24,000 nucleotides of DNA from Tissierella simiarum. GTDB lineage: Bacteria > Bacillota > Clostridia > Tissierellales > Tissierellaceae. The position numbers and the translations under genes were made by a program. The DNA lies in NCBI RefSeq assembly GCF_018917865.1, contig NZ_JAHLPM010000017.1:33896-57895 (forward strand). Direction: 5' to 3'. The stretch's first letter is position 1. Each line of letters begins with the position of its first letter. The notes below the pieces were generated by a model that saw only the letters and a list, made by a program, of their open reading frames with translations, was not told the DNA's origin and did no database searches. Shown here one piece after another: positions 893-20,332 of this stretch.

Positions 893-1183
893 TTATTTAC
901 TTTTCTCTGCTTTAGGATCTACTATCATTTCATAAGTACCTGTACTAGCTATAGTAATTAATACTGCATTAATAATAGTTAAAACTATACCTTGTAATCC
1001 TTGTCCACTTCTAGCAAATATAAAAGTAAGGATTAAGGATATTATAAAAGCATATAATCTCACTGCAGAGTCATCAAACTTTTTCTTTACTATAGATTTA
1101 GTAAATTGGACAATCACAGATACCGTCATTACTAATCCTGCAAACGTCGCTAATATTTCTAGTGTAATAAATTCGTTTAACAT
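893..1183 (-). CDS. phage holin-like small membrane protein (96 aa)
   Basis: ORF track. It has two or three hydrophobic helices and a charged C-terminal tail (DPKAEKSK). Its start is 1 nt from the stop of the amidase gene, suggesting translational coupling. The holin call rests on size, topology and context only. Confidence 0.55.
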   Translation of the reverse strand: MLNEFITLEILATFAGLVMTVSVIVQFTKSIVKKKFDDSAVRLYAFIISLILTFIFARSGQGLQGIVLTIINAVLITIASTGTYEMIVDPKAEKSK

Positions 1184-1184
1184 A

Positions 1185-1856
1185 TTATTTTACCTTCCTT
1201 TCTATATAATCTAATGCTTTATCTACAAGAGCCATAGCTTCCCCTCGTGTAATTTTATCGTCAAAACGCTTGTCTGTAATGTTGATTATACTTTTAAGAT
1301 TGTTGTAATGTTCCTCTGCCCAATGTTTTTTATCAGTCAATGCTTTAGCCTCCTTAATAAGCATAATTTTATCTAATCTTGTACCTGGACAAGTCTTAGT
1401 TACTCCTGGACCTTCTCTATGAAACTTTATGGAATCTTCTCCATACTTATTTATAAAATATCTCATTAGCTTTAATATTTCCTCTCTCTGCTTACCTTGT
1501 AAAAGATCATATCCTAGATCATTTATAGCTCCTGTTCCTGGTATATCAAAGTTGCCTATCATTTCTACAGCTAATGCTCCTGTATTCCAACCCTTTATAC
1601 TTGCTGGAGCTATATTAAAAGGTCTACCGGTTACCCAAGCACCATCTGGAAATAGTGTTAAATGTTGCCCTATGTCACTCCATCCATTTGAATTTACATG
1701 ATAGTTATACATAGATTGTTGGATTGCTATATGATTATTGCCAGTAAAACTTTTATGAGCAGGCTTCCAAGTATGATGTATATGGAGCTGCTTGAATTTA
1801 TATTTATCTAATTCTTTTATAAGATTATCAAAGTTAAGCATTCTAAAGTTCCCCAT
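1185..1856 (-). CDS. N-acetylmuramoyl-L-alanine amidase (Amidase_2/PGRP-type endolysin)
   Basis: ORF track. HIHHTW near the N-terminus plus H-x-EGPGVTKTCPG fit the T7-lysozyme-type zinc ligand pattern (His, His, Cys). Flanked by holin-like genes. Confidence 0.8.
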   Translation of the reverse strand: MGNFRMLNFDNLIKELDKYKFKQLHIHHTWKPAHKSFTGNNHIAIQQSMYNYHVNSNGWSDIGQHLTLFPDGAWVTGRPFNIAPASIKGWNTGALAVEMIGNFDIPGTGAINDLGYDLLQGKQREEILKLMRYFINKYGEDSIKFHREGPGVTKTCPGTRLDKIMLIKEAKALTDKKHWAEEHYNNLKSIINITDKRFDDKITRGEAMALVDKALDYIERKVK

Positions 1857-1867
1857 CTCATTACCTC

Positions 1868-2074
1868 CTAATTCTTAAATATATATTTTTTAATGTCTTT
1901 AACATCTTCCTGAACATTCTCTATTATATTAAACTTCTTGGATAGTTCCTCTATAATTGATTGATAATTAACTTCTCTTTTACTATTTTCTTTTAACACA
2001 TAAAACAGCGGGTAGACAAATAGTACCGCAAATATCCCTTGTGTAATTACATATTTTAATATTTCATTCTCCAT
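1868..2074 (-). CDS. BhlA/UviB-family holin-like peptide (68 aa)
   Basis: ORF track. The N-terminal TQGIFAVLFVYPLFYVLKENSKRE matches the BhlA/UviB signature (TQGPFAVLF...FYV.K.S..RE) as I remember it. GGAGGTG Shine-Dalgarno upstream. Confidence 0.7.
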   Translation of the reverse strand: MENEILKYVITQGIFAVLFVYPLFYVLKENSKREVNYQSIIEELSKKFNIIENVQEDVKDIKKYIFKN

Positions 2075-2332: not shown

Positions 2333-2560
2333 ATTTTCATCCTATTTTCTAATACGCATTTCCAACCTAGTTACAATATCCTTGTTGTTGTCAATATAAT
2401 AACAAGTTGTCTGCTTTGGGTTTTCGGATCCACGAGGATTATATGCAAATCCTACGTCGACACCCCTATTACTTGTTGTTGTTAAAAATATAAAACTAGT
2501 ATCTAGATCAACATTTAGATCAAAATCCTCCTTAAAAACTAAACTTCCTAATTAAATATT

Positions 2561-2597
2561 AAAAGGTATCTAATCTATGACAAATTAGATACCTTTT
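2561..2597 (-). terminator. rho-independent terminator downstream of the PTS IIA gene
   Basis: Perfect 14-bp stem (aaaaggtatctaat / attagatacctttt) with a 9-nt loop, 19 nt after the IIA stop, followed by AT-rich sequence in minus sense. Confidence 0.7.
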
Positions 2598-2615
2598 AAT
2601 ATAATAGAAAAACTA

Positions 2616-2927
2616 CTATTTCGAATACTTTTTATGTGTTAAAATCATTTCTTTAGTAATTTCTTTTAATGTTTCTGTTGCCATTAATTGATCTTCTGCA
2701 TGAATTAAAAGTAATGATATATTTACTAGTTCTCCAGAAGCTTCTTGATGAATTAATGAACTATGAAATTCATGGGCTTTTAGTAAACTTGTCTCTGCAT
2801 CTTTAACATAGTTTTCTGCATCATCAAATTTTTCTTCTCTAGATGCTTTTAAAGCTTTAAATAGAAATGCTCTTGCATCTCCAGCATTAGTAATTAATTG
2901 GAATAATATTAGTTCTAAATCTTGCAT
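2616..2927 (-). CDS. PTS lactose/cellobiose-family EIIA component
   Basis: ORF track. 103 aa and all-helical, with LITNAGDARA, AHEFH and LLLIHAEDQLM matching the EIIA-Lac/Cel pattern (..HAqDhlM). AAAGGAGA Shine-Dalgarno. Confidence 0.9.
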   Translation of the reverse strand: MQDLELILFQLITNAGDARAFLFKALKASREEKFDDAENYVKDAETSLLKAHEFHSSLIHQEASGELVNISLLLIHAEDQLMATETLKEITKEMILTHKKYSK

Positions 2928-3002
2928 ATATATGTCTCCTTTTCCTTATATTCTTTTTATAACTTATCCTTCTTTATCTTCTAACTAAGTTCGCAATATT
3001 TA

Positions 3003-3962
3003 TTAATCAAAAGTTATAGGAGATTTGATTCTCTCAATATATTTATCTAGCCATTCTTTACTTGCAACTTCATAAGTTGTTTTTCCATCTGTATTCTTAC
3101 ATACATAAACTGTAGGTTCTTGATTTTCTGTAACTAGAGAAAAAGAAAAACCATCAATATTTGTTGCTACACCAAATTCACCTTTATTATTTAAGCATAC
3201 TACTGATAAATCTCCTGATTTTCCTCTTCTTTTGGCTAAAACATTATTTAAATCTAAAACCGCTTTATCTGCAGCATCTTGAGGATGATATCCCTCTCTC
3301 ATTAATCTAACTATCTCATAAGAAATACAGCCCTTCATTAAATCTTCTCCAAGTCCTGTTGCTGTCGCTCCTCCTATTTCACTATCTACATAGAATCCTG
3401 AACCACATACTGGCGAATCACCAGCTCTACCTCTTTTTTTCATAAATAAGCCACTAGTTGATGTCCCTGCAACCATAGTCTTATTTCTATCTAACGCTAT
3501 CATACCAACTGTATCATGACCGTCATAAGGACTCAAGCCTTTTTCTATTGTTTCTTTAATTCTTTTTTCATAATGCTGTTTTGCTCTATCAGTTAACATG
3601 TTTTTTCTCTCAAAGCCATTTTTCTGAGCATATTCTTCTGCCCCGATTCCTACTAAAAAGCAATTAAACCTTTCTTCACTTAATTTTTTAGCTATACTTA
3701 TTGGATTTCCAAAATCTCTTATTCCAGCTACTGCCCCTATAGATAGTGTATCTCCATCCATGTATCCTGCATCTAATTCAACTATACCATTTTCATTTGG
3801 CAATCCTCCATATCCAACTGATTTATAGTAGGGATAGTCCTCAACCATCTTAATTGCTTTTTCTATTGCATTACCTGCCGACTCTCTATTTTCCAATAAT
3901 TTTGATGCTTCAGTTATTCCCTCAATTGCCATCCTCCATGTTGCTATCATTGCCCATTCCAT
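3003..3962 (-). CDS. Ntn-hydrolase of the glycosylasparaginase / isoaspartyl peptidase family (start re-set to ATG 3962, 319 aa)
   Basis: Autoprocessing motif GHDTVGMIALD, with the H-D-T codons at 3518-3510. GGAGGAG Shine-Dalgarno lies 6 nt before the ATG at 3962. The 23 extra N-terminal residues in the ORF track overlap the sigma-54 promoter, so they are probably not translated. Confidence 0.85.
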   Translation of the reverse strand: MEWAMIATWRMAIEGITEASKLLENRESAGNAIEKAIKMVEDYPYYKSVGYGGLPNENGIVELDAGYMDGDTLSIGAVAGIRDFGNPISIAKKLSEERFNCFLVGIGAEEYAQKNGFERKNMLTDRAKQHYEKRIKETIEKGLSPYDGHDTVGMIALDRNKTMVAGTSTSGLFMKKRGRAGDSPVCGSGFYVDSEIGGATATGLGEDLMKGCISYEIVRLMREGYHPQDAADKAVLDLNNVLAKRRGKSGDLSVVCLNNKGEFGVATNIDGFSFSLVTENQEPTVYVCKNTDGKTTYEVASKEWLDKYIERIKSPITFD

Positions 3963-4002
3963 AATATTCTCCTCCATTCCTAGTTCCTTAATGATATTAC
4001 AT

Positions 4003-4019
4003 ATGCAACAACTATGCCA
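4003..4019 (-). promoter_or_regulatory. sigma-54 (-24/-12) promoter TGGCAT-AGTTG-TTGCAT for the Ntn-hydrolase/IIA unit
   Basis: Minus sense reads TGGCATAGTTGTTGCAT, which fits the TGGCAC-N5-TTGCW consensus with correct spacing. The -12 element is about 40 nt upstream of the ATG at 3962. A sigma-54 activator gene is divergent and adjacent. Confidence 0.75.
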
Positions 4020-4233
4020 TTCGCAAACCATGGGTATATTTATACATTTACTTATGTTTTATTATATTTCTTTATCTAATAATTGATTTTCTACATTAAG
4101 TGTGTTATATAATAATAAATATGTATATTTATATATATTGAATTTAACACAGTATAACTTAATTTCACAATTATCTATACAATAATTAGGGATTAAATTA
4201 TACACATTATGGTTTACAAGGAGATAGTTTAAT

Positions 4234-5838
4234 ATGAAAAGAATAGATTTAGTTCACAATTCTATGAAAACGCTAGATAAAGGTGATGGAGTAACAACTA
4301 TTGAACTTAGTAGGTTTTTAGGTTTACAGAGATCTAATATAAGTAGAGACTTAAATATACTTGTTGAAAAAGGTTTTTTATATAAAAACAATTCTAGACC
4401 TGTAAAATACTTTTTAAATAATACTAATAACATAGATTTTACTGCTAAATCATCTATGGATAATTTATCCTATCTTTATCCTTCTTTAATTCCATCTATC
4501 AAACTCGCAAAAACTGCTATTCTTTATCCACCTAATGGAATGAATTGCCTGATTATTGGTGATACCGGTGTAGGTAAATCTATGTTAGCAAAGTTGATGC
4601 ATGAATATGCGAATTCACTAGATATCAGTAAGAATATGCCCTTTTTACATTTCAATTGTTCTGACTTTTCCAATAACCCTCAGTTATTAAGTGCCCATTT
4701 ATTTGGAGTTAAAAAAGGTACTTTTACTGGAGCAAATGAAGATAGACCTGGACTAATCCAGCAGGCAGATGGTGGTATTTTATTTCTAGATGAGATACAC
4801 AATCTTCCTAGTGAAGGACAGGAAATGCTTTTTGTCTTTATGGATACTGGATACTTTAAAAGATTTGGAGAAGTTACAACTAAAATTAAATCTTCTGCTC
4901 GAATAATATGTGCAACAAATAGGGATATAAGTTCTTCTCTTCTAGATACATTTATAAGGAGAATTCCAATAAAAATTTATCTTCCAAGGTTAGAGGAAAG
5001 ATTGTTAGAGGAAAGACTTACTCTTGTAGAATATTTTATAAAAAACGAAAGTATAAAGTTAGGTAAACCTGTTTCAGTTTCCTATAATGCAATGCTTTGT
5101 TTATTATCCTATCCTTGTCCATATAATGTAGGACAACTTAAAAATGATATTACTCTGGCTATTGCTAATGCATATTCAGAGTATTTTATCAATAATAAAA
5201 TACATATTAAAATCAACAGTCCTGATTTGCCAAAGGAATTAAGAAAAATGCTTAATACTCCATTGTTAGAAGAAAGGGCATTATTAGATTCTCTAGATAG
5301 TGTTGATTCCTACTTTACTTATGATGAAAACTCACAGATAACTAGTCATTCATTTTTAAAACAAAAACAGCTTATTCTTAACAGTTTTAAAAAGCTAATG
5401 ATGGATATTTCTAGAGTTACAATTAATAAAGAAACTGATAGCAGCTCTATAATTAATTTGTTTGGAGATTATTTGAGTATCATCAAAAATAATATTTCAA
5501 GCTATCAATATAGTCTAAATAGCTCTGCATATGAAGAAGTTTTATCTAACATATCTAGTCTGGATAATAAACTTAAGACATTTCTTAATGATGATATATT
5601 GAAAACTTTTTTTCATATTCATCTTGATATGATATATGATAGGATCAATTTAATAAATTTTGATTTTTTTCCTACTTTGAACAAGGTAAAATGTATTTTT
5701 CCAGAATACTATACTATTTCTTTAGGTCTAAAGTCCATTATAGAAAAAACCCATAATATAAACTTACTGAATACAGAAATATTGTTTCTGATACTTTTTA
5801 CAATATATTTACATAAGAACCAGATATCAATGGCATGA
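4234..5838 (+). CDS. sigma-54-dependent transcriptional activator (HTH - AAA+ - single C-terminal PRD; short LevR-like)
   Basis: ORF track. Walker A GDTGVGKS (aa 109-116), sigma-54 contact loop GTFTGA (aa 162-167, nt 4717-4734) and Walker B ILFLDEI. N-terminal winged-helix-like segment (TTIELSRFLGLQRSNISRDLNIL). The C-terminus has PRD-like histidines in FFHIHLDMIYDR and EILFLILFTIYLH. Confidence 0.85.
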   Translation: MKRIDLVHNSMKTLDKGDGVTTIELSRFLGLQRSNISRDLNILVEKGFLYKNNSRPVKYFLNNTNNIDFTAKSSMDNLSYLYPSLIPSIKLAKTAILYPPNGMNCLIIGDTGVGKSMLAKLMHEYANSLDISKNMPFLHFNCSDFSNNPQLLSAHLFGVKKGTFTGANEDRPGLIQQADGGILFLDEIHNLPSEGQEMLFVFMDTGYFKRFGEVTTKIKSSARIICATNRDISSSLLDTFIRRIPIKIYLPRLEERLLEERLTLVEYFIKNESIKLGKPVSVSYNAMLCLLSYPCPYNVGQLKNDITLAIANAYSEYFINNKIHIKINSPDLPKELRKMLNTPLLEERALLDSLDSVDSYFTYDENSQITSHSFLKQKQLILNSFKKLMMDISRVTINKETDSSSIINLFGDYLSIIKNNISSYQYSLNSSAYEEVLSNISSLDNKLKTFLNDDILKTFFHIHLDMIYDRINLINFDFFPTLNKVKCIFPEYYTISLGLKSIIEKTHNINLLNTEILFLILFTIYLHKNQISMA

Positions 5839-5868
5839 ATGGGTTAATTTTAACTCATCCATGCCATT
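5829..5868. terminator. hairpin between convergent genes (activator and M20 dipeptidase), probably a bidirectional terminator
   Basis: 17-position stem (aatggcatgaatgggtt / aactcatccatgccatt) with one mismatch and one wobble, and a 6-nt loop. It overlaps the activator stop codon. Confidence 0.5.
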
Positions 5869-5885
5869 ATATTTGATTAATTATG

Positions 5886-7271
5886 CTACCTAGCTAATTC
5901 ATAAATAGCCCTCGCATAGATTTGGATACATTTTTCAAGTAAAGAAACATGTATAAACTCATTAGCTTGATGAGCTAAGTTCTCATTATCTTTAAACAAA
6001 GGTCCAAAAGCTACTGTGTTGGGCATTAGCTTTGCATAAGTACCTCCGCCTGTTGATAATAATTCTGCCTCTTCACCTACTACCTCTTCATAAGCCTTTT
6101 TTAAAGACATCACTAATCTATGATCCTTTGGAAAATATAATGGAGCATTATGATTACCTTCATGGAATATAAAATTAGTATCTTTTATCTTATGCTTTAT
6201 ATTATTTAATATATCCTCATGAGATATAGTCACTGGGTATCTTATATTAAATCTCATACGTATTTCTGAGTTGTTTTCATTAATTACTCCAAGATTTAAT
6301 GTTAATGCTCCCGACTCTTCATCATAGAAATTTATTCCAAGTTTATTGCCATCCCAATCTTTTCCTATTAATTCTGAAAAATCTTCTAAAAACATAGTAA
6401 AATCATTTTTTAATTTTAATACCTTGTTTAAGTATAATAGTATATTAGCTATAGCATTTTCACCTAACTCTGGTGTGCTTCCATGAGAAGCTATTCCCTT
6501 ACTTTTTATTATTATATAATTTTCACTATATTCTAAGTCTATTTTATATATTTCTTTTAGACTTGTATCATTAAGTGCCATAATTAGCTGATTGTTATTA
6601 TTATGTATTATCTTACATTCACAATAATCAGGAACTATATTAGATCTTTTTCCTCCCTTAATATAATCAATTTCATAATCATCAAAGACATTTTCTAAAT
6701 TTTGTACTAATTCAAAAGTAAGAATTCCTTTTTCAGAAGTTACTATAGGAAAATAAGCATCGGGAGTAAAACAGTATAGTGGAGATTCTTCCCTCTTTAA
6801 GTAATAATCTATATCCTCTGTTCCAGATTCTTCATTAGTACCAAATATTACTCTAACTTTTTTAGATAATTTTATATTTGAATCCTTTAATAGTTTTAAT
6901 GCATAAAGTGCAGCTAGTAATGGTCCTTTATCATCTAAAGCTCCTCTACCATGGACTTTGCCATCTTTTATTATAGGTTCAAAGGGATTTGTACTCCAAC
7001 CATTCCCTTCTGGCACAACATCTATATGACCTAATACACCCACGTATTCATCGCCTTGTCCAAATTCTGCATACCCTATATAGTTATTTAAGTTAACTGT
7101 CCTAAACCCATATGACTTAGCTATGTCTAATATACAGTTTAAACCTTCTGTTATTCCCGCACCAAAAGGATGATCTTTAACAGAAACATCTTTTACTGTT
7201 TTTTTCCTTAATATGCTTTTTAAATCTATTAAAAACTCATCTTCTATTTTAATGTCCTTAATAAACACCAT
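5886..7271 (-). CDS. M20-family dipeptidase, PepV-like, full length (461 aa)
   Basis: ORF track. GHIDVVP, GRGALDDKGP, GTNEESG, FTPD and AHQANE correspond to the M20 metal and catalytic positions. The lid segment with KGIASHGSTPELGENA is present. Confidence 0.85.
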   Translation of the reverse strand: MVFIKDIKIEDEFLIDLKSILRKKTVKDVSVKDHPFGAGITEGLNCILDIAKSYGFRTVNLNNYIGYAEFGQGDEYVGVLGHIDVVPEGNGWSTNPFEPIIKDGKVHGRGALDDKGPLLAALYALKLLKDSNIKLSKKVRVIFGTNEESGTEDIDYYLKREESPLYCFTPDAYFPIVTSEKGILTFELVQNLENVFDDYEIDYIKGGKRSNIVPDYCECKIIHNNNNQLIMALNDTSLKEIYKIDLEYSENYIIIKSKGIASHGSTPELGENAIANILLYLNKVLKLKNDFTMFLEDFSELIGKDWDGNKLGINFYDEESGALTLNLGVINENNSEIRMRFNIRYPVTISHEDILNNIKHKIKDTNFIFHEGNHNAPLYFPKDHRLVMSLKKAYEEVVGEEAELLSTGGGTYAKLMPNTVAFGPLFKDNENLAHQANEFIHVSLLEKCIQIYARAIYELAR

Positions 7272-7321
7272 AAAATCACTCCCTAAGACATTTAACTTAT
7301 CTTAATATCATATAAATAAGA

Positions 7322-8425
7322 TTATCTATTAGTTGTTTTCATTTCTCTCAATAATTCTGAGTTTACTCTTTTACAAAATTCTGTAATAACTTCTACCGTT
7401 TGAATATAATCTTTACAATGAATTATTAGTCTAGGTGAATGCATATAACGTGTTGGTATAGAAAGTGTCATTGTAATAATCCCATCAAATGTTTTGTGTA
7501 TGATACCAGAATCTGTTCCTCCTGCAGTCATAAGGTCATAATTTATATCTAGCTTTAGCTCTTTACAAATTTCTTCTATTTTTTCAATTAATCCTCTGTG
7601 TGCTAATGCTGTAGAATCTAATACACTAAGTATAACTCCACATCCTAGCTTTATTTCACCTTTATCTACTGGTGTATCTTTAGCTGTTGTTACATCTAAT
7701 GCAAAGGCAATATCTGGTTTAATAATCTGGGTTGAAGTTCTAGCTCCCCTCAGTCCAACTTCCTCCTGAACCGTGCCAACTACATAAATATTTGCATCAT
7801 GCTCAATATTTTGTAGTTTCTTTAATACATCTATACCTACTGCTATACCTATCCTATCATCCCATGCCTTACCTAATAAATAATTTTGATTATTCATAAT
7901 AGAAAAGTTAACATTGGGAGTAATCATATCTCCTATTTGTATTCCCAAATCTTCCGCTTCTTCTTTTGTTGCTACTCCCAAATCTATGAATAAATCAATT
8001 GGTTTAATCACTTTTTCTTTTTCGGAATTTGACATTCCATGAGGTGCACGACTTCCAACAATACCATTAATCTTTTTACCTGCTGATGTGGTTATGGTCA
8101 TTTCTTGGGAAGGCAATACATGCCCCCACCATCCTCCTACAGGCAATATTTTTATATATCCATTACTATCAATATCTCTTACAACAAATCCTACTTCATC
8201 CATATGTCCAGCAATCATAATTTTAGGTCCATTCGGTTTACCTTTTTTTAATCCTATAATTGAACCTAAATTATCATATGAAATTTCATCAATATAATTA
8301 TTTAGATACTTTTTAACAACTCTACTAACTTCTTTTTCGCAACCTGATATACCGTCAGCTTCACTTAGTTCTTTTAGCATTTGTAAATCTATATTATGGT
8401 AAGTTACTTCTTTGTTTTTACTCAT
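7322..8425 (-). CDS. M42-family aminopeptidase (FrvX/YsdC/TET-like), ligand set intact
   Basis: ORF track. GHMDEVGF (H74), KAWDDRIG (D189/190), VQEEVGLRGA (E221/E222), ALDVT (D244) and RYMHSP (H329). Confidence 0.85.
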   Translation of the reverse strand: MSKNKEVTYHNIDLQMLKELSEADGISGCEKEVSRVVKKYLNNYIDEISYDNLGSIIGLKKGKPNGPKIMIAGHMDEVGFVVRDIDSNGYIKILPVGGWWGHVLPSQEMTITTSAGKKINGIVGSRAPHGMSNSEKEKVIKPIDLFIDLGVATKEEAEDLGIQIGDMITPNVNFSIMNNQNYLLGKAWDDRIGIAVGIDVLKKLQNIEHDANIYVVGTVQEEVGLRGARTSTQIIKPDIAFALDVTTAKDTPVDKGEIKLGCGVILSVLDSTALAHRGLIEKIEEICKELKLDINYDLMTAGGTDSGIIHKTFDGIITMTLSIPTRYMHSPRLIIHCKDYIQTVEVITEFCKRVNSELLREMKTTNR

Positions 8426-8480
8426 GAATCTTCCTCCAAGACTTTAAATTCTTATATTTTTTATACTAAATATAAATATC

Positions 8481-9557
8481 TTACCTATTTTCAGCTTTAA
8501 ATTTATTAATGCTTTCTGTGTTCAATGATTTTACAACATTAATGATTGCTTCTTTTGCGGCAATGTAATCATCAACGTCTATTATTGAACTATTAGTATT
8601 AATGTTTCTAGCACAAATACAAGTGGTTAAAGTTGGACATCCCACCAATAGTTTATGAATCCATCCAGCATCACTATCACCCATAGAATAAAAATACTGA
8701 TGTTTTATATGATTTGTTTTACAAATATGGATTAAATGCTGCAACAATGTTCTATTAGGCATCATTGATTTATCATAATAATTAATTAATATTCCTTCTC
8801 CTAGTTTTCCTACCGTATCATCACCACTTTTTATATCATTTGCTTGTAAACATTCCATTACAATTCCTAAATCTGGCTTAATTAAGTTAGTAGAAGTTTG
8901 AGCACCTCTTAATCCCACCTTATTTTGTACTGTAGAACCAATATATAAATCTACATCTAACTCTATATCCTTTAGTGCTTCTAATAATTCTATACCCATG
9001 ATACAGCCATAACGATTATTCCAAGCTTTAGAAAGAATTCTTTTACCTTTAGTTAGTACTTCAAATTGTCCATCAATAACAATTGAATCACCAAACTTTA
9101 TTCCTAACTCTGCAATTTCTTCTTTACTAGTTCCTCCAATATCCACTAAAATTTCACTAGCTTTTATTAATTTATCCTCGTCTGCTTGAGGATTAGGAAC
9201 AATTATACTTCCTTTAAATTCCTTTCCCTCATGATTTATCAATCTAACCCTTTGTGCTAATACAGTTTGATTTTGAATACTACCTAATGGCAAAACTCTA
9301 ATTAATCCTGTATCTGTAATTCCATTAACTACAAATCCAACTTCATCCATATGCCCACAAATTATAACTTTTTTAGCATTTTCTTTTCCACAACGCTTTA
9401 CCGCAAAAACAGAACCTAAATTATCAAAAATTATTTCATCTGTATATTTTTTATAATGCTTTTGTAATACTCTAGAAATATATTTTTCATTTCCTGAAAC
9501 TCCAATTATTTGAGTAATCTCTTCCATTAATTCTAATGTATTATCATTTAATTTCAT
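8481..9557 (-). CDS. M42-family paralog with substituted metal and catalytic residues (probable pseudo-peptidase)
   Basis: ORF track. It aligns by eye to the neighbouring M42 protein, but AWNNRYG replaces AWDDRIG, VQNKVGLRGA replaces VQEEVGLRGA, VMECL replaces ALDVT, and ARNINTN replaces TRYMHSP. Only the GHMDEVGF histidine is kept. Confidence 0.8.
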   Translation of the reverse strand: MKLNDNTLELMEEITQIIGVSGNEKYISRVLQKHYKKYTDEIIFDNLGSVFAVKRCGKENAKKVIICGHMDEVGFVVNGITDTGLIRVLPLGSIQNQTVLAQRVRLINHEGKEFKGSIIVPNPQADEDKLIKASEILVDIGGTSKEEIAELGIKFGDSIVIDGQFEVLTKGKRILSKAWNNRYGCIMGIELLEALKDIELDVDLYIGSTVQNKVGLRGAQTSTNLIKPDLGIVMECLQANDIKSGDDTVGKLGEGILINYYDKSMMPNRTLLQHLIHICKTNHIKHQYFYSMGDSDAGWIHKLLVGCPTLTTCICARNINTNSSIIDVDDYIAAKEAIINVVKSLNTESINKFKAENR

Positions 9558-9592
9558 AGTTCTTACCTCTTCTCTTTTATTGAGTTGCTTTC

Positions 9593-10717
9593 CTATTTTG
9601 CTAATTTATATATTGCCTGAGCAAATATTTTTGTATTTAATACTATATCGCTAATATCCATATATTCATTAGGATTGTGAGCAATTCCCTTTTGTCCTGG
9701 AAATGATGGACCAAATGGTACAATGTTGGGCATAATCTTTGCGTAAGTTCCACCAGTAGTTGTAACTGGAGTTCCATCTAAATTAGTTACTTCTTCATAA
9801 GCTTCTTGTAAAGATTTAACTAGAAAACAATCTTTTTTAAATTTAACTGGATTATAATTTTGTAATAGCTCTATGCTTAAGTTTCTACTCATTTTTGATT
9901 CTATCTGACTAATTATTTCATCTATCGTACATATTGCTGGATAGCTTAAATCAAACAGAAAATTTAAATGATTATCCTTAATATCCAAATTGTAATTTCT
10001 CATTTCCATAATCCCAAACTCTTTATCACTATAATTAATCCCTAACCTATCACCATTTGATTTACTTGATAGAAAATAACTATTGATAAAATTGAAAAAT
10101 TCTTGTGTAGATTCTTCATAATTTTCTTTATTTATATGGACTCTTATTTTAATTTTTGCTCTCCCTCGTTCACCATAAACTACTGGATACTTGCAATCAG
10201 GAGTAAATCCCATAATTGGAGGCTTTTCTCTATCTAAATAATGAGGTATGTCCTGGAATCCACTTTCTTCATCAGTACCAAATATAATACGTACTGGTTT
10301 TTTTAATTCTAATTTAGATTCTTTTATGGCGTATAATGCATATAATGCACTTATTATTGGTCCCTTGTTATCAAGTACTCCCCGACTATAAATCCTATCA
10401 TTTTCAACATGTCCACTAAATGGTGGATTAATCCACCCTTCTTCTGAAGGAACTACATCTAAATGTCCTACAACTCCTATATAATCATCACCATCACCTA
10501 ATTGTGCATATCCTACATATCCATCAATATTTTTCGTTTTGAAATTCAGTTTTTCAGATATTTCTAATGCTTTTAATAACGCATTATGGACATTTACTCC
10601 AAATGGAGCATCTACTATAGGTACATCTTTTACACTTGGTATCTTTACTATTTCAATAATATCCTTTATTAGCTGTTCTTTGAACTCATCTATTTTTTCA
10701 TTTAAAATTTGTTCCAT
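9593..10717 (-). CDS. M20-family dipeptidase, PepV-related but about 90 aa shorter (lid segment missing)
   Basis: ORF track. GHLDVVP, SRGVLDNKGP, GTDEESG, FTPD and AHNPNE are retained. The region corresponding to the ..GGKRSN....SHGSTPELGENA.. part of the 461-aa paralog is absent. No obvious Shine-Dalgarno before the ATG. Confidence 0.8.
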   Translation of the reverse strand: MEQILNEKIDEFKEQLIKDIIEIVKIPSVKDVPIVDAPFGVNVHNALLKALEISEKLNFKTKNIDGYVGYAQLGDGDDYIGVVGHLDVVPSEEGWINPPFSGHVENDRIYSRGVLDNKGPIISALYALYAIKESKLELKKPVRIIFGTDEESGFQDIPHYLDREKPPIMGFTPDCKYPVVYGERGRAKIKIRVHINKENYEESTQEFFNFINSYFLSSKSNGDRLGINYSDKEFGIMEMRNYNLDIKDNHLNFLFDLSYPAICTIDEIISQIESKMSRNLSIELLQNYNPVKFKKDCFLVKSLQEAYEEVTNLDGTPVTTTGGTYAKIMPNIVPFGPSFPGQKGIAHNPNEYMDISDIVLNTKIFAQAIYKLAK

Positions 10718-10794
10718 TGTTTGTCAGCAACTTGTAGTAAATATTTACTACAAAGCTTATTCACCCCTTAATATATATTTTTTGTTATCTAAAA

Positions 10795-10822
10795 AGGTAG
10801 CCTAATTAATTTTAGACTACCT
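10795..10822 (-). terminator. intra-locus hairpin plus U-tract directly after the GrdB-like gene (terminator or attenuator)
   Basis: Minus-sense RNA reads AGGUAGUC-(12 nt)-GGCUACCU followed by UUUUUAG: 8 bp including one G-U. It starts 6 nt after the stop at 10828. Confidence 0.5.
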
Positions 10823-10827
10823 ATTTT

Positions 10828-11349
10828 TTAATAGCATATTTCTTTTAAATACTCACTTATATCTTCCCCATCAACTTTCTTTCTAGCTAAAGAGCAAATA
10901 TTTCTAAGGGATTCACTTAATCCAGTTCCACCTTTTTTGGGCATAACTACAATATTCACTAAATCTTTATAATCTAAAATAGTTTGTTCATTTTCTTTAG
11001 ACATTGCAGCTATAGCTGGAATATTAGTTTTTTCATTAATTTCGTAAGCTAATACTGCACACATTTCTGCATATCCTGCATAGTTAAAAGCTGGTCCACA
11101 TATAACTATATCTGGATTAATTTTTTTCACCATAGCTGTCATTTTTAACTTTACTTCATCTCTATTATCTTTGAAAAAACCATCTCCGCAATATAAGCAT
11201 GCTACAACCTTCCCATTTACTTCCTTTAAAGCTGGTTCCAACATACTTGCAGATCCTATAGCCATAGATTTACCCCCTAATGGTAAATTAGGGTTTTCTT
11301 TGCCTCCTTGACCAGCCTGTACTTGATCGAATATCATTAAAACCTTCAT
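10828..11349 (-). CDS. stand-alone GrdB N-terminal-domain-like protein (173 aa), function unknown
   Basis: ORF track. The strings FDQVQAGQGGKE, CGDGFF, NPDIVICGPAFNYAGY and IPAIAAM parallel my memory of the N-terminal region of glycine/betaine/sarcosine/proline reductase selenoprotein B (..INQFF.GIGGEEKA.., ..CGD.Y.., ..NPDL.IAGPAFNAGRYG.., ..IP.V..M). AGGAGGTAAGG Shine-Dalgarno; the gene is tightly coupled to IIC. Confidence 0.55.
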   Translation of the reverse strand: MKVLMIFDQVQAGQGGKENPNLPLGGKSMAIGSASMLEPALKEVNGKVVACLYCGDGFFKDNRDEVKLKMTAMVKKINPDIVICGPAFNYAGYAEMCAVLAYEINEKTNIPAIAAMSKENEQTILDYKDLVNIVVMPKKGGTGLSESLRNICSLARKKVDGEDISEYLKEICY

Positions 11350-11360
11350 TTCCTTACCTC

Positions 11361-12710
11361 CTAAAAATCATCAAAAGATAAATCTTCAAAAGAAATATCT
11401 TCTTCCTCTTGCAGATTATTTTTTGCATCTTCTTCATCTTTTAGGTATTGTTTATCTAGCATCTTTATAAACGGATAATAAATTACACATCCCAGTACCA
11501 ATAATCCTATTTGCCACAATCCTGCGAACAAACTTCCCGTTGACAAGTATCCAGAAAATCCTATTGGAGTTGTCCACGGTAATGATACTCCTGTAGTATA
11601 AGGAATAATTCCTGCCTTAGTAGCAAATGTGGAAAGTATCAAATTTATTAGTGGAACACCAATAAATGGAACAATTAACACTGGATTTAATACAATTGGT
11701 AATCCAAAGATAATTGGCTCATTAATTCCAAAAATTCCTGGAACGATTGATAACTTACCTAATTGATTAATTCTTTTTGATTTACAGAAAAGTAACATAA
11801 CTATAACTAGCGAAAGAGTACTTCCTCCTCCTCCAAATCCTGTGAAGAAATTTGAAAAGGGATCTGTAAATATATTTGGTAACGGTAATCCAGCTTGGAA
11901 TGCTTCCAAGTTTTCAATAGTTAGTATTTTAGTAATTGGTGCAAATACTGTATTTGCAACTGCTGGACCGTTAATTCCAAAGAACCAAAATAGCGTACAT
12001 ACTATACTATATACAATTTGAGCTACCAATGTGTTTCCTACACCTTGTAACGGTGCCTGTAATACTGTATATATAAAGTTATGTGCTGTTTCAAAGGGTG
12101 TAAATTCAAATCCTATACGAATAAAGAAAAATAGTCCAATAACTATAGCACTTGGAATCAATGCTGCAAAAGAATCACATACTGCTGGCGGAACACCTTC
12201 TGGCATCTTAATCGTCCAACCTTTTCTATATGCCCAATTAAATACACTTACTGATGTTAAGGATATAATAAGAGCTAAAAATATACCATTAGAGCCTACA
12301 TACTCAAAGCCTAGTGCATTCATAGTGGCTGGTCCATCAACACCTTCAAACGGAATTCTTGTTGGCATCAAGATAATGAATGCGACTAAAGCCACAACTG
12401 CTCCTTGAATCTTATCACCTTTTATTTCTCTAGAATATGCATAGCCTGTCCCCACACAGGTCAACAAACCAATTATGTTAAAGGTTGCTCTTGAAACATT
12501 TATAAACCATAACTCCCAATCTACTCCAAGATATTTTGTCCAAAACTCAGACCAACCTGGAACTGGAAAATTTGCTATTAATAAAAAGATAGAACCTACA
12601 ATTAACAATGGTGTTGATATCAGAAAACCATCACGAATTGCAACTAAAACTTTATTTTTGCCTAGTCTATCAGCAATAGGCATTAGCACCTTTTCTAATG
12701 ATGCAAGCAT
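11361..12710 (-). CDS. PTS lactose/cellobiose-family EIIC permease (449 aa) with an acidic C-terminal tail
   Basis: ORF track. Polytopic membrane protein with the typical EIIC type-3 layout (N-terminal LEKVLMPIA..LG.N..L.AIRDG). AGGAGGAG Shine-Dalgarno. The tail is DEEDAKNNLQEEEDISFEDLSFDDF. Confidence 0.9.
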   Translation of the reverse strand: MLASLEKVLMPIADRLGKNKVLVAIRDGFLISTPLLIVGSIFLLIANFPVPGWSEFWTKYLGVDWELWFINVSRATFNIIGLLTCVGTGYAYSREIKGDKIQGAVVALVAFIILMPTRIPFEGVDGPATMNALGFEYVGSNGIFLALIISLTSVSVFNWAYRKGWTIKMPEGVPPAVCDSFAALIPSAIVIGLFFFIRIGFEFTPFETAHNFIYTVLQAPLQGVGNTLVAQIVYSIVCTLFWFFGINGPAVANTVFAPITKILTIENLEAFQAGLPLPNIFTDPFSNFFTGFGGGGSTLSLVIVMLLFCKSKRINQLGKLSIVPGIFGINEPIIFGLPIVLNPVLIVPFIGVPLINLILSTFATKAGIIPYTTGVSLPWTTPIGFSGYLSTGSLFAGLWQIGLLVLGCVIYYPFIKMLDKQYLKDEEDAKNNLQEEEDISFEDLSFDDF

Positions 12711-12721
12711 TTTATCTCCTC

Positions 12722-13045
12722 CTATTTTTTATTTTTTTTAATAAGAATAATTGCAGTTTTTAAAACCTTTTCTGCATTCATCATTCCATAGTCTTGTGAG
12801 TCAATTACTGCTATTGGAGTATTAATATCCTTGAATCTCTCTACTGTTTCATCATATAAGTACTTAACTTGTGGTCCTAATAGTATACAATCAGGATTAA
12901 GAGTTTCAACAATTTCTTCAAGTTTACCATGTGGAAAAGCTTTTACCTCAATTGGAAGCTCATGAGTATCTGCCACATCCTGCATCTTATTTGCTAATAA
13001 ACTTGTAGACATACCATGGCTGCAGAATAAATAAATCTTTTTCAT
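12722..13045 (-). CDS. PTS lactose/cellobiose-family EIIB component
   Basis: ORF track. 107 aa with the N-terminal IYLFCSHGMSTSLL active-site cysteine loop typical of EIIB-Cel. Confidence 0.9.
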   Translation of the reverse strand: MKKIYLFCSHGMSTSLLANKMQDVADTHELPIEVKAFPHGKLEEIVETLNPDCILLGPQVKYLYDETVERFKDINTPIAVIDSQDYGMMNAEKVLKTAIILIKKNKK

Positions 13046-13323
13046 CGTTTACACCTACTTTCTCTAATATTATTATTTTATTTGTTTAATAAAAACTTTG
13101 TTAACCTCTAGCTTATATTATCCTCTCATCTTAGCTGTTTATCAATGATAGATGCCAATCAATCTTTGTGGCAAACGTTCTCCTTAAAATTTTTATCCTA
13201 TTATTTTATGTACTCAGTAATTTTTTCTTATCTTTAATCATCACATCCTCCTATTTATAGAAAACATTAATTATAACACATAATTATATTAATCAATTTC
13301 TTAACTACCTTTATCTTTTATAT

Positions 13324-13340
13324 AGCAATTCTTATGCCAA
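13324..13340 (-). promoter_or_regulatory. sigma-54 (-24/-12) promoter TTGGCAT-AAGAA-TTGCT for the IIB-IIC-... operon
   Basis: Minus sense reads TTGGCATAAGAATTGCT, which fits TGGCAC-N5-TTGCW with correct spacing. It lies about 280 nt upstream of the IIB start, implying a long leader. Confidence 0.75.
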
Positions 13341-13772
13341 CTTTAAATTAGTGCTATAACCATATTGTTTTAGGATTCTCTTTATGATTTCTTGTATAGT
13401 TTTATCTTCAATTCTAAAAGTGTATCCTATTTCAACACACATCTTAAGAGTTTATTGGATTTGATTTTGATAGTGTATTGTTTTTTTTATATTTCATACA
13501 CTATTATCCTCAACTCAACACAATCAATATTAAAACAATATTCTTCCTTTTATCAGCATATATAATTAGAGCAGTTATTTGAAAATAGGGACTCAACAGT
13601 TTCTTATTATTTGACGTAAAATAATCTATATTTATATAAAAATAAATACTCTTTTCTGGCAAAAATTAAACAAAACCAAAAAAGAGTATATTATAAAAAA
13701 ATTTTAATAGAAATAATTTAAAATTGGGACTTACAGATTGATAGTTCCCTAAGAAATAATGATTATTAATTA

Positions 13773-18160: not shown

Positions 18161-20332
18161 CTATACTGTAACTCTATATACATCAATGACACCTTTTATT
18201 CTCTTAATCTTTCTCATTAAATCTCTTAATTGTTCTATGTCTTTAATTTCTAAAGTAATATTTATAATTACTAATTTTTCTTTATTCGTTCTAGCATTTA
18301 AAGATAGTAATCCTAAGTCAGAGTCTGTAATTTTCTGAGTTATTTCTGTTAATAATCCAGATTTATCAGTAGCCTTGATTTGTATCTCAGCTGGATATGA
18401 AGCTTTTTTATGGAAATCCCATTCTACCTCTATAAATCTTTCTGTTCCGTCAACATCACTGACATTAGGACAATCAGTTCTATGAACAGAAACTCCTCTA
18501 CCTCTAGTTATATATCCAACTATATCATCTCCAGGTACTGGATTACAGCACTTTGAAAATCTAACTTTTATATTATCTAGCCCTTTAATAGTAACTCCTT
18601 GGGTAGGTTTTTTCTCTTTCTTCTGAGTACTTTGTTGAATCTTACTTTCAACAAATCCTTTCTCATCTTTAATTTTATAGTAATCATTATAATATTCTTT
18701 AAGCTTACTTAATACTTGGTTTACTGTAATACTTCCATATCCTAAGGCTGCGTATAAATCTTCTACTGAGTTTATACTAAGCTTATTGGTAGTTCCTTTT
18801 ATCCACTCATCCTTTAAAATTTCCGTCAATTTATAACCCTGACGTTTAATTTCTTTTTCTAATATTTCTTTGCCTCTGGTAATATTTAAGTCTCTTTCCT
18901 TTAACTTAAACCATTGTCTTATCTTGTTTTTTGCTTGATTACTTTTAACAATTTTAAGCCAATCTCTACTAGGACCATTGCTATTAGTAGAGGTGATTAC
19001 TTCTACAATATTTCCATTTTTAAGTTTATAATCTAAAGGTACAATTCTTCCGTCAACTTTAGCTCCAACACAGTTGTTTCCTACTGCAGTGTGGACTCTA
19101 TAAGCAAAATCTACTGGTGTAGATCCATTAGGTAAATTAATAACATCTCCTCTAGGAGTAAAAACAAAGACTTCATCAGTAAAAAAGTCTATCTTTAGAG
19201 TTTCCATAAATTCTTTAGGATCTTTTAAATCTTTCTGCCATTCTAGAAGTTGCCTTAGCCAAGTTAGCTTCTCATCAAAATTATCTGCTTTCACTACTCC
19301 TTCTTTATACTTCCAGTGAGCAGCAATACCGTATTCTGCTGTTCGATGCATTTCCCAAGTACGTATTTGTACTTCAAATATTTCTCCCTGTGGACCTATA
19401 ACTGTTGTATGAAGAGACTGATACATATTTGGTTTAGGCATGGCAATATAGTCTTTAAAACGACCGGGTATAGGTTTCCACATAGTGTGAACTATACCTA
19501 AAACACCATAACAGTCTTTTATATTATCTACTATAATTCTAATTGCTGTCAAATCAAAAATTTGTTCAAAGCTTTTTCCTTGATAAACCATTTTCTTATA
19601 TATACTATAAAAGTTTTTTGGTCTACCACTTATTTCGTAACTGATATCCATTTCATCTAATTTCTTACTTAAAGATTCAATTAACTTTTTGACATACGCT
19701 TCCCTTTCCCTTCTTCTCTTAGAAACCTTTTCTACTAAATCATAATATCCAGCAGGGTCTAAATATCTTAGAGATAAGTCTTCTAGTTCCCATTTAATCT
19801 TAGAAATTCCCAGTCTATGAGCTAAAGGAGCATATATTTCTATAGTCTCTAAGGCCTTTTCTTTTTTCTTAGCATCGCTCATATATTCAAGAGTTCTCAT
19901 ATTGTGAAGTCTATCGGCTAATTTAATTATAATTACTCTAATATCTTTAGCCATAGCCATAACCATTTTTCTTAAATTCTCCGCTTGGTTTTCTTGTTTA
20001 GTTTTATATTGAAGTTTCTTTAGCTTAGTCACGCCTTCGACTAAATCAGCTATTTCAGTTCCAAATTCTTCTACAACTTTTTCGTAAGTCGTATTTGTAT
20101 CTTCTATAATATCATGAAGAAGTCCAGCTATTATAGTAGCTGTATCCATATTTAAGTCAGCTAATATCATTGCCACATTAAAAGGATGTATAAAGAATCT
20201 CTCTCCAGAGTTTCTTGCTTGACCTTCATGAGCTGATTCAGCAAAATTATAAGCCTTTATTATTTGTTGCAAATCTGCTTGTGGGTTATATTGCTCTATT
20301 TTTAATAGTAAATTCTCTAACATGATATTCAC
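18161..20332 (-). CDS. relA: bifunctional (p)ppGpp synthetase/hydrolase RelA/SpoT (Rel)
   Basis: ORF track. HD hydrolase motif (LLHDIIEDT), a RelA_SpoT synthetase region (YRSLHTTV-like QSLHTTVIGP), and TGS and ACT-like C-terminal domains; 723 aa. Confidence 0.95.
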   Translation of the reverse strand: MNIMLENLLLKIEQYNPQADLQQIIKAYNFAESAHEGQARNSGERFFIHPFNVAMILADLNMDTATIIAGLLHDIIEDTNTTYEKVVEEFGTEIADLVEGVTKLKKLQYKTKQENQAENLRKMVMAMAKDIRVIIIKLADRLHNMRTLEYMSDAKKKEKALETIEIYAPLAHRLGISKIKWELEDLSLRYLDPAGYYDLVEKVSKRRREREAYVKKLIESLSKKLDEMDISYEISGRPKNFYSIYKKMVYQGKSFEQIFDLTAIRIIVDNIKDCYGVLGIVHTMWKPIPGRFKDYIAMPKPNMYQSLHTTVIGPQGEIFEVQIRTWEMHRTAEYGIAAHWKYKEGVVKADNFDEKLTWLRQLLEWQKDLKDPKEFMETLKIDFFTDEVFVFTPRGDVINLPNGSTPVDFAYRVHTAVGNNCVGAKVDGRIVPLDYKLKNGNIVEVITSTNSNGPSRDWLKIVKSNQAKNKIRQWFKLKERDLNITRGKEILEKEIKRQGYKLTEILKDEWIKGTTNKLSINSVEDLYAALGYGSITVNQVLSKLKEYYNDYYKIKDEKGFVESKIQQSTQKKEKKPTQGVTIKGLDNIKVRFSKCCNPVPGDDIVGYITRGRGVSVHRTDCPNVSDVDGTERFIEVEWDFHKKASYPAEIQIKATDKSGLLTEITQKITDSDLGLLSLNARTNKEKLVIINITLEIKDIEQLRDLMRKIKRIKGVIDVYRVTV

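Follow-up and report, generated by a model that had tools for sequence, protein, structure and literature searches.

N-acetylglucosaminyl-asparagine (GlcNAc-Asn) is the stub that is left once endoglycosidases and proteases have degraded N-glycoproteins. The locus considered here lies in a 24,000-nucleotide stretch of Tissierella simiarum DNA (contig NZ_JAHLPM010000017.1, positions 33,896 to 57,895; hereafter the window), and it brings together a lactose/cellobiose-family phosphotransferase system (PTS), an N-terminal nucleophile (Ntn) hydrolase of the glycosylasparaginase type, four peptidases, a GrdB-like protein and a sigma-54 activator. Its sequence suggests that it is quite probably an ega-type locus for the use of GlcNAc-asparagine.

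A system of this kind has been described in Enterococcus faecalis, where the ega (enterococcal glycosylasparaginase) locus contains a GntR gene, a dipeptidase, the glycosylasparaginase EgaG, enzymes IIB and IIC of a PTS (EIIB and EIIC) and a GrdB-type 'oxidoreductase' (PMC11549559). CelA1, of the cellobiose family, acts as the EIIA of this GlcNAc-L-Asn PTS (PMC11976118). The primary paper, as cited in both sources, is Combret et al. (Res Microbiol 175:104169). A preliminary description of the window had pointed to such a PTS-plus-glycosylasparaginase route in E. faecalis, and the published reports show that it exists (PMC11976118, PMC11549559). The core system was thus already published in 2023, and NCBI names both the hydrolase and the GrdB-like protein correctly, the identical proteins of T. 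simiarum (Tissierella sp. MSJ-40) being entered as N(4)-(beta-N-acetylglucosaminyl)-L-asparaginase and 'GrdB-related putative oxidoreductase', respectively.

Related solutions and regulators are known from other bacteria. In the alf-2 cluster of Lactobacillus casei, the glycosylasparaginase AsnA2 and a linked PepV serve the use of fucosyl-alpha-1,6-GlcNAc-Asn, which is taken up by a major facilitator superfamily (MFS) permease (PMC6960285). CelR of E. faecalis is a sigma-54 activator with PTS regulation domains (PRDs) that acts on lactose/cellobiose-family PTS operons (PMC11976118), and a sigma-54 and PRD activator of the same name acts on a lactose/cellobiose PTS operon in Clostridium acetobutylicum (Nie et al. 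2016, as cited in PMC6615313). In addition, the accessory proteins CelGHI help the lactose-family EIIC CelC2 of E. faecalis to carry larger substrates (PMC11976118).

Gene content and comparison with described systems

Gene families were assigned from a listing of open reading frames together with Pfam and NCBIfam profile searches of the 24-kb window. All ten genes of the preliminary description were recovered at the positions and in the families it had proposed, and profile matches also bear out its view that the lactose/cellobiose-family PTS is split, with IIB-IIC at 13045-11361 and a distant IIA at 2927-2616. The features of the locus are the following.

2557..2601, minus strand: intrinsic terminator with a 20-bp stem and T-run (-25.9 kcal/mol, z -7.4)
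2616..2927, minus strand: PTS EIIA, lactose/cellobiose family, 103 amino acids (aa) (PF02255, E 2.5e-30; TIGR00823, 90 bits)
3003..3962, minus strand: glycosylasparaginase-type Ntn hydrolase (Asparaginase_2), 319 aa (best PDB match, Flavobacterium glycosylasparaginase)
4005..4019, minus strand: sigma-54 promoter (-24/-12) of the hydrolase-IIA unit, TGGCATAGTTGTTGC (0 in 100 shuffles)
4100..4205, minus strand: upstream activator region of the hydrolase-IIA unit (GTGTRT/AYACAC half-sites at -86 and -186)
4234..5838, plus strand: sigma-54 enhancer-binding protein, 534 aa, with a weak N-terminal HTH, AAA+ and one PRD (PF00158, E 2.5e-40)
5886..7271, minus strand: full-length PepV-type M20 dipeptidase, 461 aa (NF005591, 522 bits, cutoff 435)
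7322..8425, minus strand: M42 (TET-type) aminopeptidase a, 367 aa (PF05343, E 1e-98)
8481..9557, minus strand: M42 aminopeptidase b, 358 aa (PF05343, E 1.4e-74)
9593..10717, minus strand: short-lid PepV-like M20 peptidase, 374 aa (NF005591-type match, 362 bits, cutoff 435)
10795..10822, minus strand: conserved hairpin and T-run directly after the GrdB-like stop codon (-15 kcal/mol, z -5.6)
10828..11349, minus strand: GrdB-like protein without selenocysteine, 173 aa (NF041545, 258 bits, cutoff 175)
11361..12710, minus strand: PTS EIIC, lactose/cellobiose family, 449 aa (PF02378, E 2e-58; TIGR00410, 412 bits, cutoff 236)
12722..13045, minus strand: PTS EIIB, lactose/cellobiose family, 107 aa (PF02302, E 8e-18)
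13325..13339, minus strand: sigma-54 promoter of the IIB-IIC-GrdB-like(-peptidase) unit, TGGCATAAGAATTGC (kept in relatives)
13420..13501, minus strand: upstream activator region of the PTS unit (two inverted-repeat GTGTRT..AYACAC sites at -101/-86 and -162/-139)

A cytoplasmic glycosylasparaginase, lactose/cellobiose-family EIIB and EIIC, an M20 dipeptidase and a GrdB-type gene stand in one locus in both the ega system and the window. Furthermore, a cellobiose-family EIIA is required in E. faecalis, and a cellobiose-type EIIA is encoded in the window locus. The window differs from the ega core in its regulator and its richer peptidase set. Enterococcus has a GntR repressor-type gene, whereas the window lacks GntR and has a pair of sigma-54 promoters with a short HTH-AAA+-PRD activator, and a second, full-length PepV and an M42 pair are added. 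The EIIA is encoded elsewhere in E. faecalis (CelA1) but inside the locus in the window, and the GrdB-like gene is a pseudogene in E. faecalis OG1RF but intact here. The likeness was set by the published description of ega, with the loci of E. gallinarum (GntR-M20-hydrolase-IIC-GrdB-like-M42-M42), E. thailandicus (GntR-M20-hydrolase-IIB-IIC) and Vagococcus as sequence proxies; E. faecalis EgaG was not among the best 120 matches of the protein search.

The alf-2 cluster resembles the window in linking a cytoplasmic glycosylasparaginase to PepV, and in encoding the fate of the released aspartate nearby, by AsdA in L. casei and, in window relatives, by AspA together with malic enzyme. However, L. 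casei uses the MFS permease, a sugar kinase (SugK) and a fucosidase, whereas the window has a PTS and neither kinase nor glycosidase; since uptake in L. casei proceeds without phosphorylation, SugK and the fucosidase are needed there. The preliminary description had seen no glycoside hydrolase, sugar kinase, deacetylase or isomerase in the locus, and profile searches detect none there and none in the flanking DNA.

M42 genes also lie beside PTS genes in Escherichia coli (frvX, sgcX), where no substrate has been shown to link the two. The frv and sgc PTS belong to the fructose- and galactitol-type families and are not accompanied by a glycosylasparaginase, while the context of the window suggests a concrete candidate class of substrate. 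A literature search on M42, frvX/sgcX and PTS yielded nothing useful.

The hydrolase and its conserved partners

Comparison of the hydrolase by sequence with all solved structures (PDB) gives 201 bits (E 2e-58) for the Flavobacterium glycosylasparaginase and 111-118 bits for human ASRGL1 and the guinea-pig and E. coli isoaspartyl enzymes. Human AGA, whose two chains were scored separately, reaches 60 + 71 bits. The margin of ~85 bits over IaaA and ASRGL1 supports the glycosylasparaginase type that had been proposed for this protein. The H-D-T site was likewise located correctly at codons 3518-3510; it corresponds to His149-Asp150-Thr151, and the beta chain of the Flavobacterium enzyme has its residue 1 at the position of Thr151. 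Across 74 aligned hydrolases that are linked to a PTS and a GrdB-like gene, H149-D150-T151, T169, R179, D182, T202 and G203 are invariant. Among these, R179, D182, T202 and G203 match the aspartate-binding Arg180, Asp183, Thr203 and Gly204 of the Flavobacterium enzyme, and its sugar-stacking Trp11 is kept as W9 in a TW motif at residues 8-9.

The TWRMA motif, in which Met takes the place of Phe13, is also invariant and marks the whole cytoplasmic Firmicutes subfamily. Its Arg10 was considered as a possible 6-phosphate ligand specific to PTS-linked enzymes and rejected, because essentially all cytoplasmic Firmicutes homologues carry it; this arginine is therefore not evidence for a phosphorylated substrate. 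No signal peptide was found in the hydrolase. The longest frame, 3003-4031, was discarded as the gene, as it contains the sigma-54 promoter of the hydrolase itself (TGGCATAGTTGTTGC at 4019-4005). The start was corrected to the ATG at 3962, which is preceded by a GGAGGAG ribosome-binding site and yields 319 aa, the length of the homologues.

A gene-neighbourhood census, suggested in the preliminary description, revealed that the gene set is syntenic across 80 loci from several families. One genome per species was scanned with an alignment of GrdB-like proteins, which gave 329 relatives, and the best 80 of the 329 loci were analysed; these loci are not phylogenetically independent, so that association statistics drawn from them are inflated. 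EIIC is encoded directly upstream of the GrdB-like gene in 77 of the 80 loci, an M20 peptidase is present in 73, the hydrolase in 71, a CutC-family gene in 54 and the M42 pair in 23. The sigma-54 activator occurs in 12 loci, all of which have the M42 pair. The commonest form, IIA-IIB-IIC-GrdB-like-hydrolase-short M20-CutC, is found in Clostridium, Erysipelotrichaceae, Lachnospiraceae, Butyricicoccus, Catenibacterium, Romboutsia, Paraclostridium and Ligilactobacillus.

The gene order of the window (IIB, IIC, GrdB-like, short M20, M42, M42, PepV, opposite-strand activator, hydrolase, IIA) is found again in two metagenome-assembled genomes and in Clostridium sp. KNHs214 and C. cadaveris. Relatives of the KNHs214/cadaveris type carry two genes that are absent from the window, cutC between hydrolase and IIA and an RDD-family gene between promoter and IIB. 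In most related loci, the CutC gene follows the hydrolase or the short M20 (e.g. 19137-19787 in census locus L006), and the corresponding window gap, 2928-3002, is without CutC; AspA and malic enzyme, also present in relatives, were likewise not found in the window locus. A literature search on CutC with glycosylasparaginase returned nothing useful. Aspartate ammonia-lyase and malic enzyme are further encoded in the loci of C. paraputrificum and C. baratii, in agreement with aspartate as the product of the hydrolase. One locus labelled Varibaculum timonense (Actinomycetota; L007, CABMKH010000005.1) is Clostridium-like, with 82% protein identity and two IIC genes, and probably reflects a mislabelled or contaminated assembly.

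The GrdB-like protein is the counterpart of the first 160-odd residues of selenoprotein B and matches positions 3-164 of the 347 in the Pfam model. With 173 aa, compared with ~430 aa in full-length GrdB, it is without the selenocysteine-containing C-terminal half and fits the no-selenium model NF041545. Among 63 aligned homologues Q11, G13, G15, K17, C54, G55 and most of a PKKGG-GL motif are invariant, and D8, Q9, C84, N89, Y90, K138, G140 and C172 are kept at 90% or more. The AlphaFold (AF2) model has a flavodoxin-like alpha/beta fold (pLDDT 97), and neither a sequence nor a fold search found a solved relative. The protein may be regarded as a conserved companion of EIIC, and its fixed place after EIIC recalls the accessory CelGHI, to which it is unrelated in sequence. 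In C. baratii-type loci, a second, divergent GrdB-like gene (35-43% identical) lies directly upstream of the hydrolase with its own sigma-54 promoter (9462-9980 in L003/L004; also L011, L012, L016 and L018).

Of the two M20 proteins, the one at 5886-7271 has the PepV catalytic domain and a complete lid and exceeds the NF005591 cutoff (522 vs 435). The other, at 9593-10717, has lost ~90 lid residues and keeps the catalytic-domain motifs HLDVVP, DNKG, DEESG, TPD and AHNPNE; its orthologues, of 343-399 aa, occur in 63 loci and are the usual partner of the hydrolase. Both M42 proteins give full-length PF05343 matches and stay under the cutoffs of the specific NCBIfam equivalogs. The best PDB match of M42 a is B. 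subtilis YsdC (1vhe, 346 bits), and that of M42 b is the glutamyl aminopeptidase of S. pneumoniae (3kl9, 212 bits). Only loci whose EIIC is at least 63% identical to that of the window have the M42 pair (22 of 27 loci vs 0 of 49; Fisher 1e-14, a value inflated because the loci are not independent samples). This link with an EIIC subtype is seen in Clostridium, Erysipelotrichaceae, Lactobacillaceae and Enterococcaceae, and also within Enterococcus.

Promoters, activator and transcript ends

Scanning of the 24 kb for the sigma-54 pattern TGGCAY-N5-TTGC revealed exactly two perfect sites, at 4019-4005 and 13339-13325, and none in 100 shuffles. Each lies on the coding strand ahead of one of the two units, in keeping with the earlier proposal that both units are headed by a TGGCAT-N5-TTGC promoter. 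In activator-bearing relatives, the hydrolase promoter stands 54-69 nt before the hydrolase start in 7 of 8 architectures with the hydrolase directly downstream (199 nt in L013), and the element is also kept in front of the PTS unit. C. baratii-type loci have it ahead of their second GrdB-like gene, which immediately precedes the hydrolase. A sigma-54 element is also found before aspA (aspartate ammonia-lyase) in C. baratii, C. paraputrificum and C. disporicum (L001 6645, L003 203, L014 16176 and others). Together with the malic enzyme gene that is sometimes in the locus, this suggests that the regulon in relatives reaches the breakdown of the released aspartate.

Upstream of the promoters, GTGTRT/AYACAC half-sites stand at about -86, -100, -139, -162 and -186. 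Their offsets are conserved in 21 related promoter regions, where they occur at a density of ~11 per kb, compared with 0.9 per kb in the window overall, and by this pattern they are likely candidate binding sites of the activator. The activator has Walker A, Walker B and the GTFTGA loop, with a single PRD at residues 443-522. As with CelR, -24/-12 promoters precede lactose/cellobiose-family PTS genes, the AAA+ activator bears a PRD, and the activator sites lie ~100 bp upstream. However, proteins of the LevR/CelR type have ~900 aa and two PRDs parted by EIIA-Man and EIIB-Gat, whereas the window activator ends after the first PRD; its alignment covers positions 117-568 of the 938-position DagR model, i.e. 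the first half of LevR/DagR-type proteins. Since the orthologues in relatives are equally short (527-533 aa), this is a short single-PRD form and not a truncation peculiar to the T. simiarum genome. Its regulon is not among the 39 groups reconstructed for Clostridiales.

The leader from the PTS-unit promoter to IIB is ~280 nt long (13045-13339). It holds an 11-codon open reading frame (MIKDKKKLLST, 13241-13206) preceded by a strong ribosome-binding site, and in relatives an RDD-family membrane protein gene (166-188 aa) lies between promoter and IIB (L006 7476-8305, L009 7536-8294, L003 1954-2685). Rfam (gathering thresholds) and tRNA scans of the window gave no match, and therefore no riboswitch or RAT-type antiterminator was detected in the leader.

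At the other end, a strong terminator at 2601-2557 closes the hydrolase-IIA unit. Within the PTS unit, a hairpin at 10822-10795 parts IIB-IIC-GrdB-like from the four peptidase genes, and its stem, GGTAGTCTAA..TTAGRCTACC, is kept in six species. This hairpin is likely a partial terminator or a processing site, and the peptidase genes may therefore be expressed at another level than IIB-IIC-GrdB-like. Between it and the start codon of the short M20 lies a perfect 22-bp palindrome, TTGTAGTAAATATTTACTACAA, at ~10734-10755 on the minus strand, which is not kept in the relatives compared. No obvious ribosome-binding site adjoins this start codon.

The genes upstream of the locus are core genes (DUF2785, a radical SAM protein, an MBL hydrolase, dtd, relA, recJ and secF). 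Downstream, the locus adjoins a phage-type lysis remnant (window 893-2074, minus strand) that encodes a BhlA/UviB-like 68-aa protein (1868-2074, phrog_2429), an Amidase_2 endolysin (1185-1856) and, at 893-1183, a membrane protein of 96 aa whose likeness to a holin lies in its position only.

A candidate pathway and competing explanations

The central proposal of the preliminary description, a lactose/cellobiose-family PTS that delivers a GlcNAc-Asn-type substrate to a cytoplasmic glycosylasparaginase, is upheld by the hydrolase scores, the ega parallel, the synteny of 80 loci and the aspA promoter in relatives. Gene identities, synteny, promoters and residue conservation are direct observations, and the function in E. 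faecalis is taken from the literature; from these we infer the substrate in T. simiarum, the site of phosphorylation, the role of the peptidases and the logic of the PRD. EIIA, EIIB and EIIC would import and phosphorylate GlcNAc-Asn, presumably at O6 of the sugar. The hydrolase would cleave itself at His149-Asp150-Thr151 and then split the Asn-sugar amide to release L-aspartate and 1-amino-GlcNAc-6-P. The latter would decay to GlcNAc-6-P and ammonium, and general NagA and NagB, encoded elsewhere, would complete the pathway. Phosphorylation by the PTS and housekeeping NagA/NagB would explain why the locus has no kinase, glycosidase, deacetylase or isomerase. The divergent HTH-AAA+-PRD protein would activate both sigma-54 promoters from the GTGTRT/AYACAC sites, and through its single PRD the availability of substrate would presumably be read from the phosphorylation state of the PTS. 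The most likely role of the peptidases (the short-lid M20, the M42 pair and PepV) would be to remove residues that flank Asn(GlcNAc) on its arrival, so that its alpha-amino and alpha-carboxyl groups become free, and they may also feed on accompanying peptides.

Several points weigh against this interpretation. The presumed substrate in T. simiarum is assigned by homology alone, and the proteins of the window and of E. faecalis were compared through Enterococcus, Vagococcus and other proxies. The window hydrolase has Met where the Flavobacterium enzyme contacts the sugar by Phe13. In two census loci (L027 and L051), IIC-GrdB-like-M42-M42 occurs without the hydrolase and IIB within 10 kb, so that the module is not tied to the glycosylasparaginase. 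The conserved hairpin between PTS and peptidase genes may make their co-expression only partial. Finally, PepV is not needed for growth of L. casei on fucosyl-GlcNAc-Asn (PMC6960285), so that use of the free glycoamino acid may not require the window peptidases either.

Two other assignments of the substrate have to be considered. In one, an IaaA-like hydrolase would salvage beta-aspartyl peptides as part of a general peptide-degradation regulon, next to an unrelated beta-glucoside or chitobiose PTS. The sole NCBIfam match of the hydrolase is indeed a beta-aspartyl-peptidase model, but its 115 bits are far under the cutoff of 567, and although some sources label homologues 'isoaspartyl peptidase/L-asparaginase-like', the solved glycosylasparaginases stand ~85 bits above IaaA or ASRGL1, and three motifs (the HDT site, GYGG-P and TW) are of the glycosylasparaginase type. 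On scores and motifs, an isoaspartyl-peptidase identity was thus rejected. Similarly, the EIIC comes near the cutoff of the cellobiose IIC model (412 vs 434 bits), yet an ordinary beta-glucoside PTS was rejected on the PTS-hydrolase synteny in 71 of 80 loci across several families, and on profile searches in which neither the locus nor its surroundings gave a 6-phospho-beta-glucosidase. The two units, moreover, share a single activator and a single type of promoter, and the salvage scheme as a whole is highly improbable. There is a small chance that the system acts on a different sugar-amino-acid conjugate, such as glucosyl- or fructosyl-asparagine, an Amadori-type compound or a fragment of a bacterial glycoconjugate, and that GlcNAc-Asn is only a side activity. 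The Phe to Met change relative to the classical enzymes, the invariant subfamily signature TWRMA, and the GrdB-like and (in relatives) CutC proteins, which have no role in a simple GlcNAc-Asn scheme, would agree with this. However, orthologous Enterococcus-type loci share the signature and the gene set, the E. faecalis system acts on GlcNAc-L-Asn, and profile searches detect no fructosamine-type deglycase or kinase.

An extension of the GlcNAc-Asn pathway, which does not exclude it, is that a PTS with the EIIC subtype of the window takes up glycopeptides, X-Asn(GlcNAc) or Asn(GlcNAc)-X-Ser/Thr, which the M42 pair and the two M20 peptidases would have to trim before the hydrolase can act. This is possible but rather doubtful. 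It would agree with the M20 peptidase that accompanies the hydrolase in 73 of 80 loci and with the confinement of the M42 pair to EIICs at least 63% identical to that of the window, although this association is inflated, as the census loci are not phylogenetically independent, and five loci of the same subtype (subtype A) are without M42. To our knowledge, no PTS carries a peptide-bearing sugar, which counts against such import, as do the dispensability of PepV in L. casei (PMC6960285) and the hairpin after the GrdB-like gene, which may uncouple the peptidases from the PTS genes. Lactose-family EIICs can, on the other hand, carry larger substrates with the help of accessory proteins, as CelC2 does with CelGHI (PMC11976118). 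Two linked possibilities are slightly more tentative still: the EIIC subtype, with the adjacent GrdB-like protein and the M42 pair, would import short N-glycopeptide stubs and not free GlcNAc-Asn alone, the stubs being trimmed in the cytoplasm by M42 and M20 exopeptidases; and the pathway would need the GrdB-like protein, either as an EIIC accessory, as CelC2 needs CelGHI, or as an enzyme that acts on the glycosylamine-6-phosphate product. If true, glycopeptide import would be the first case in which a PTS takes up a sugar bearing a peptide, and it would explain the old pairing of M42 genes with PTS operons (frvX, sgcX).

To conclude, under the preferred assignment to GlcNAc-Asn, the E. faecalis system appears as one variant of a cassette that is widespread in Firmicutes, IIA-IIB-IIC-GrdB-like-glycosylasparaginase-short M20-CutC, and that some clostridia have placed, along with the breakdown of aspartate, under sigma-54 control. 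Still of interest are its conserved partners (the GrdB-like protein, the M20 with the short lid and, in relatives, CutC) and the M42 pair, which follows one EIIC subtype. The route would be one of those by which gut anaerobes gain both carbon and nitrogen from glycoproteins of the host mucosa and of the diet.

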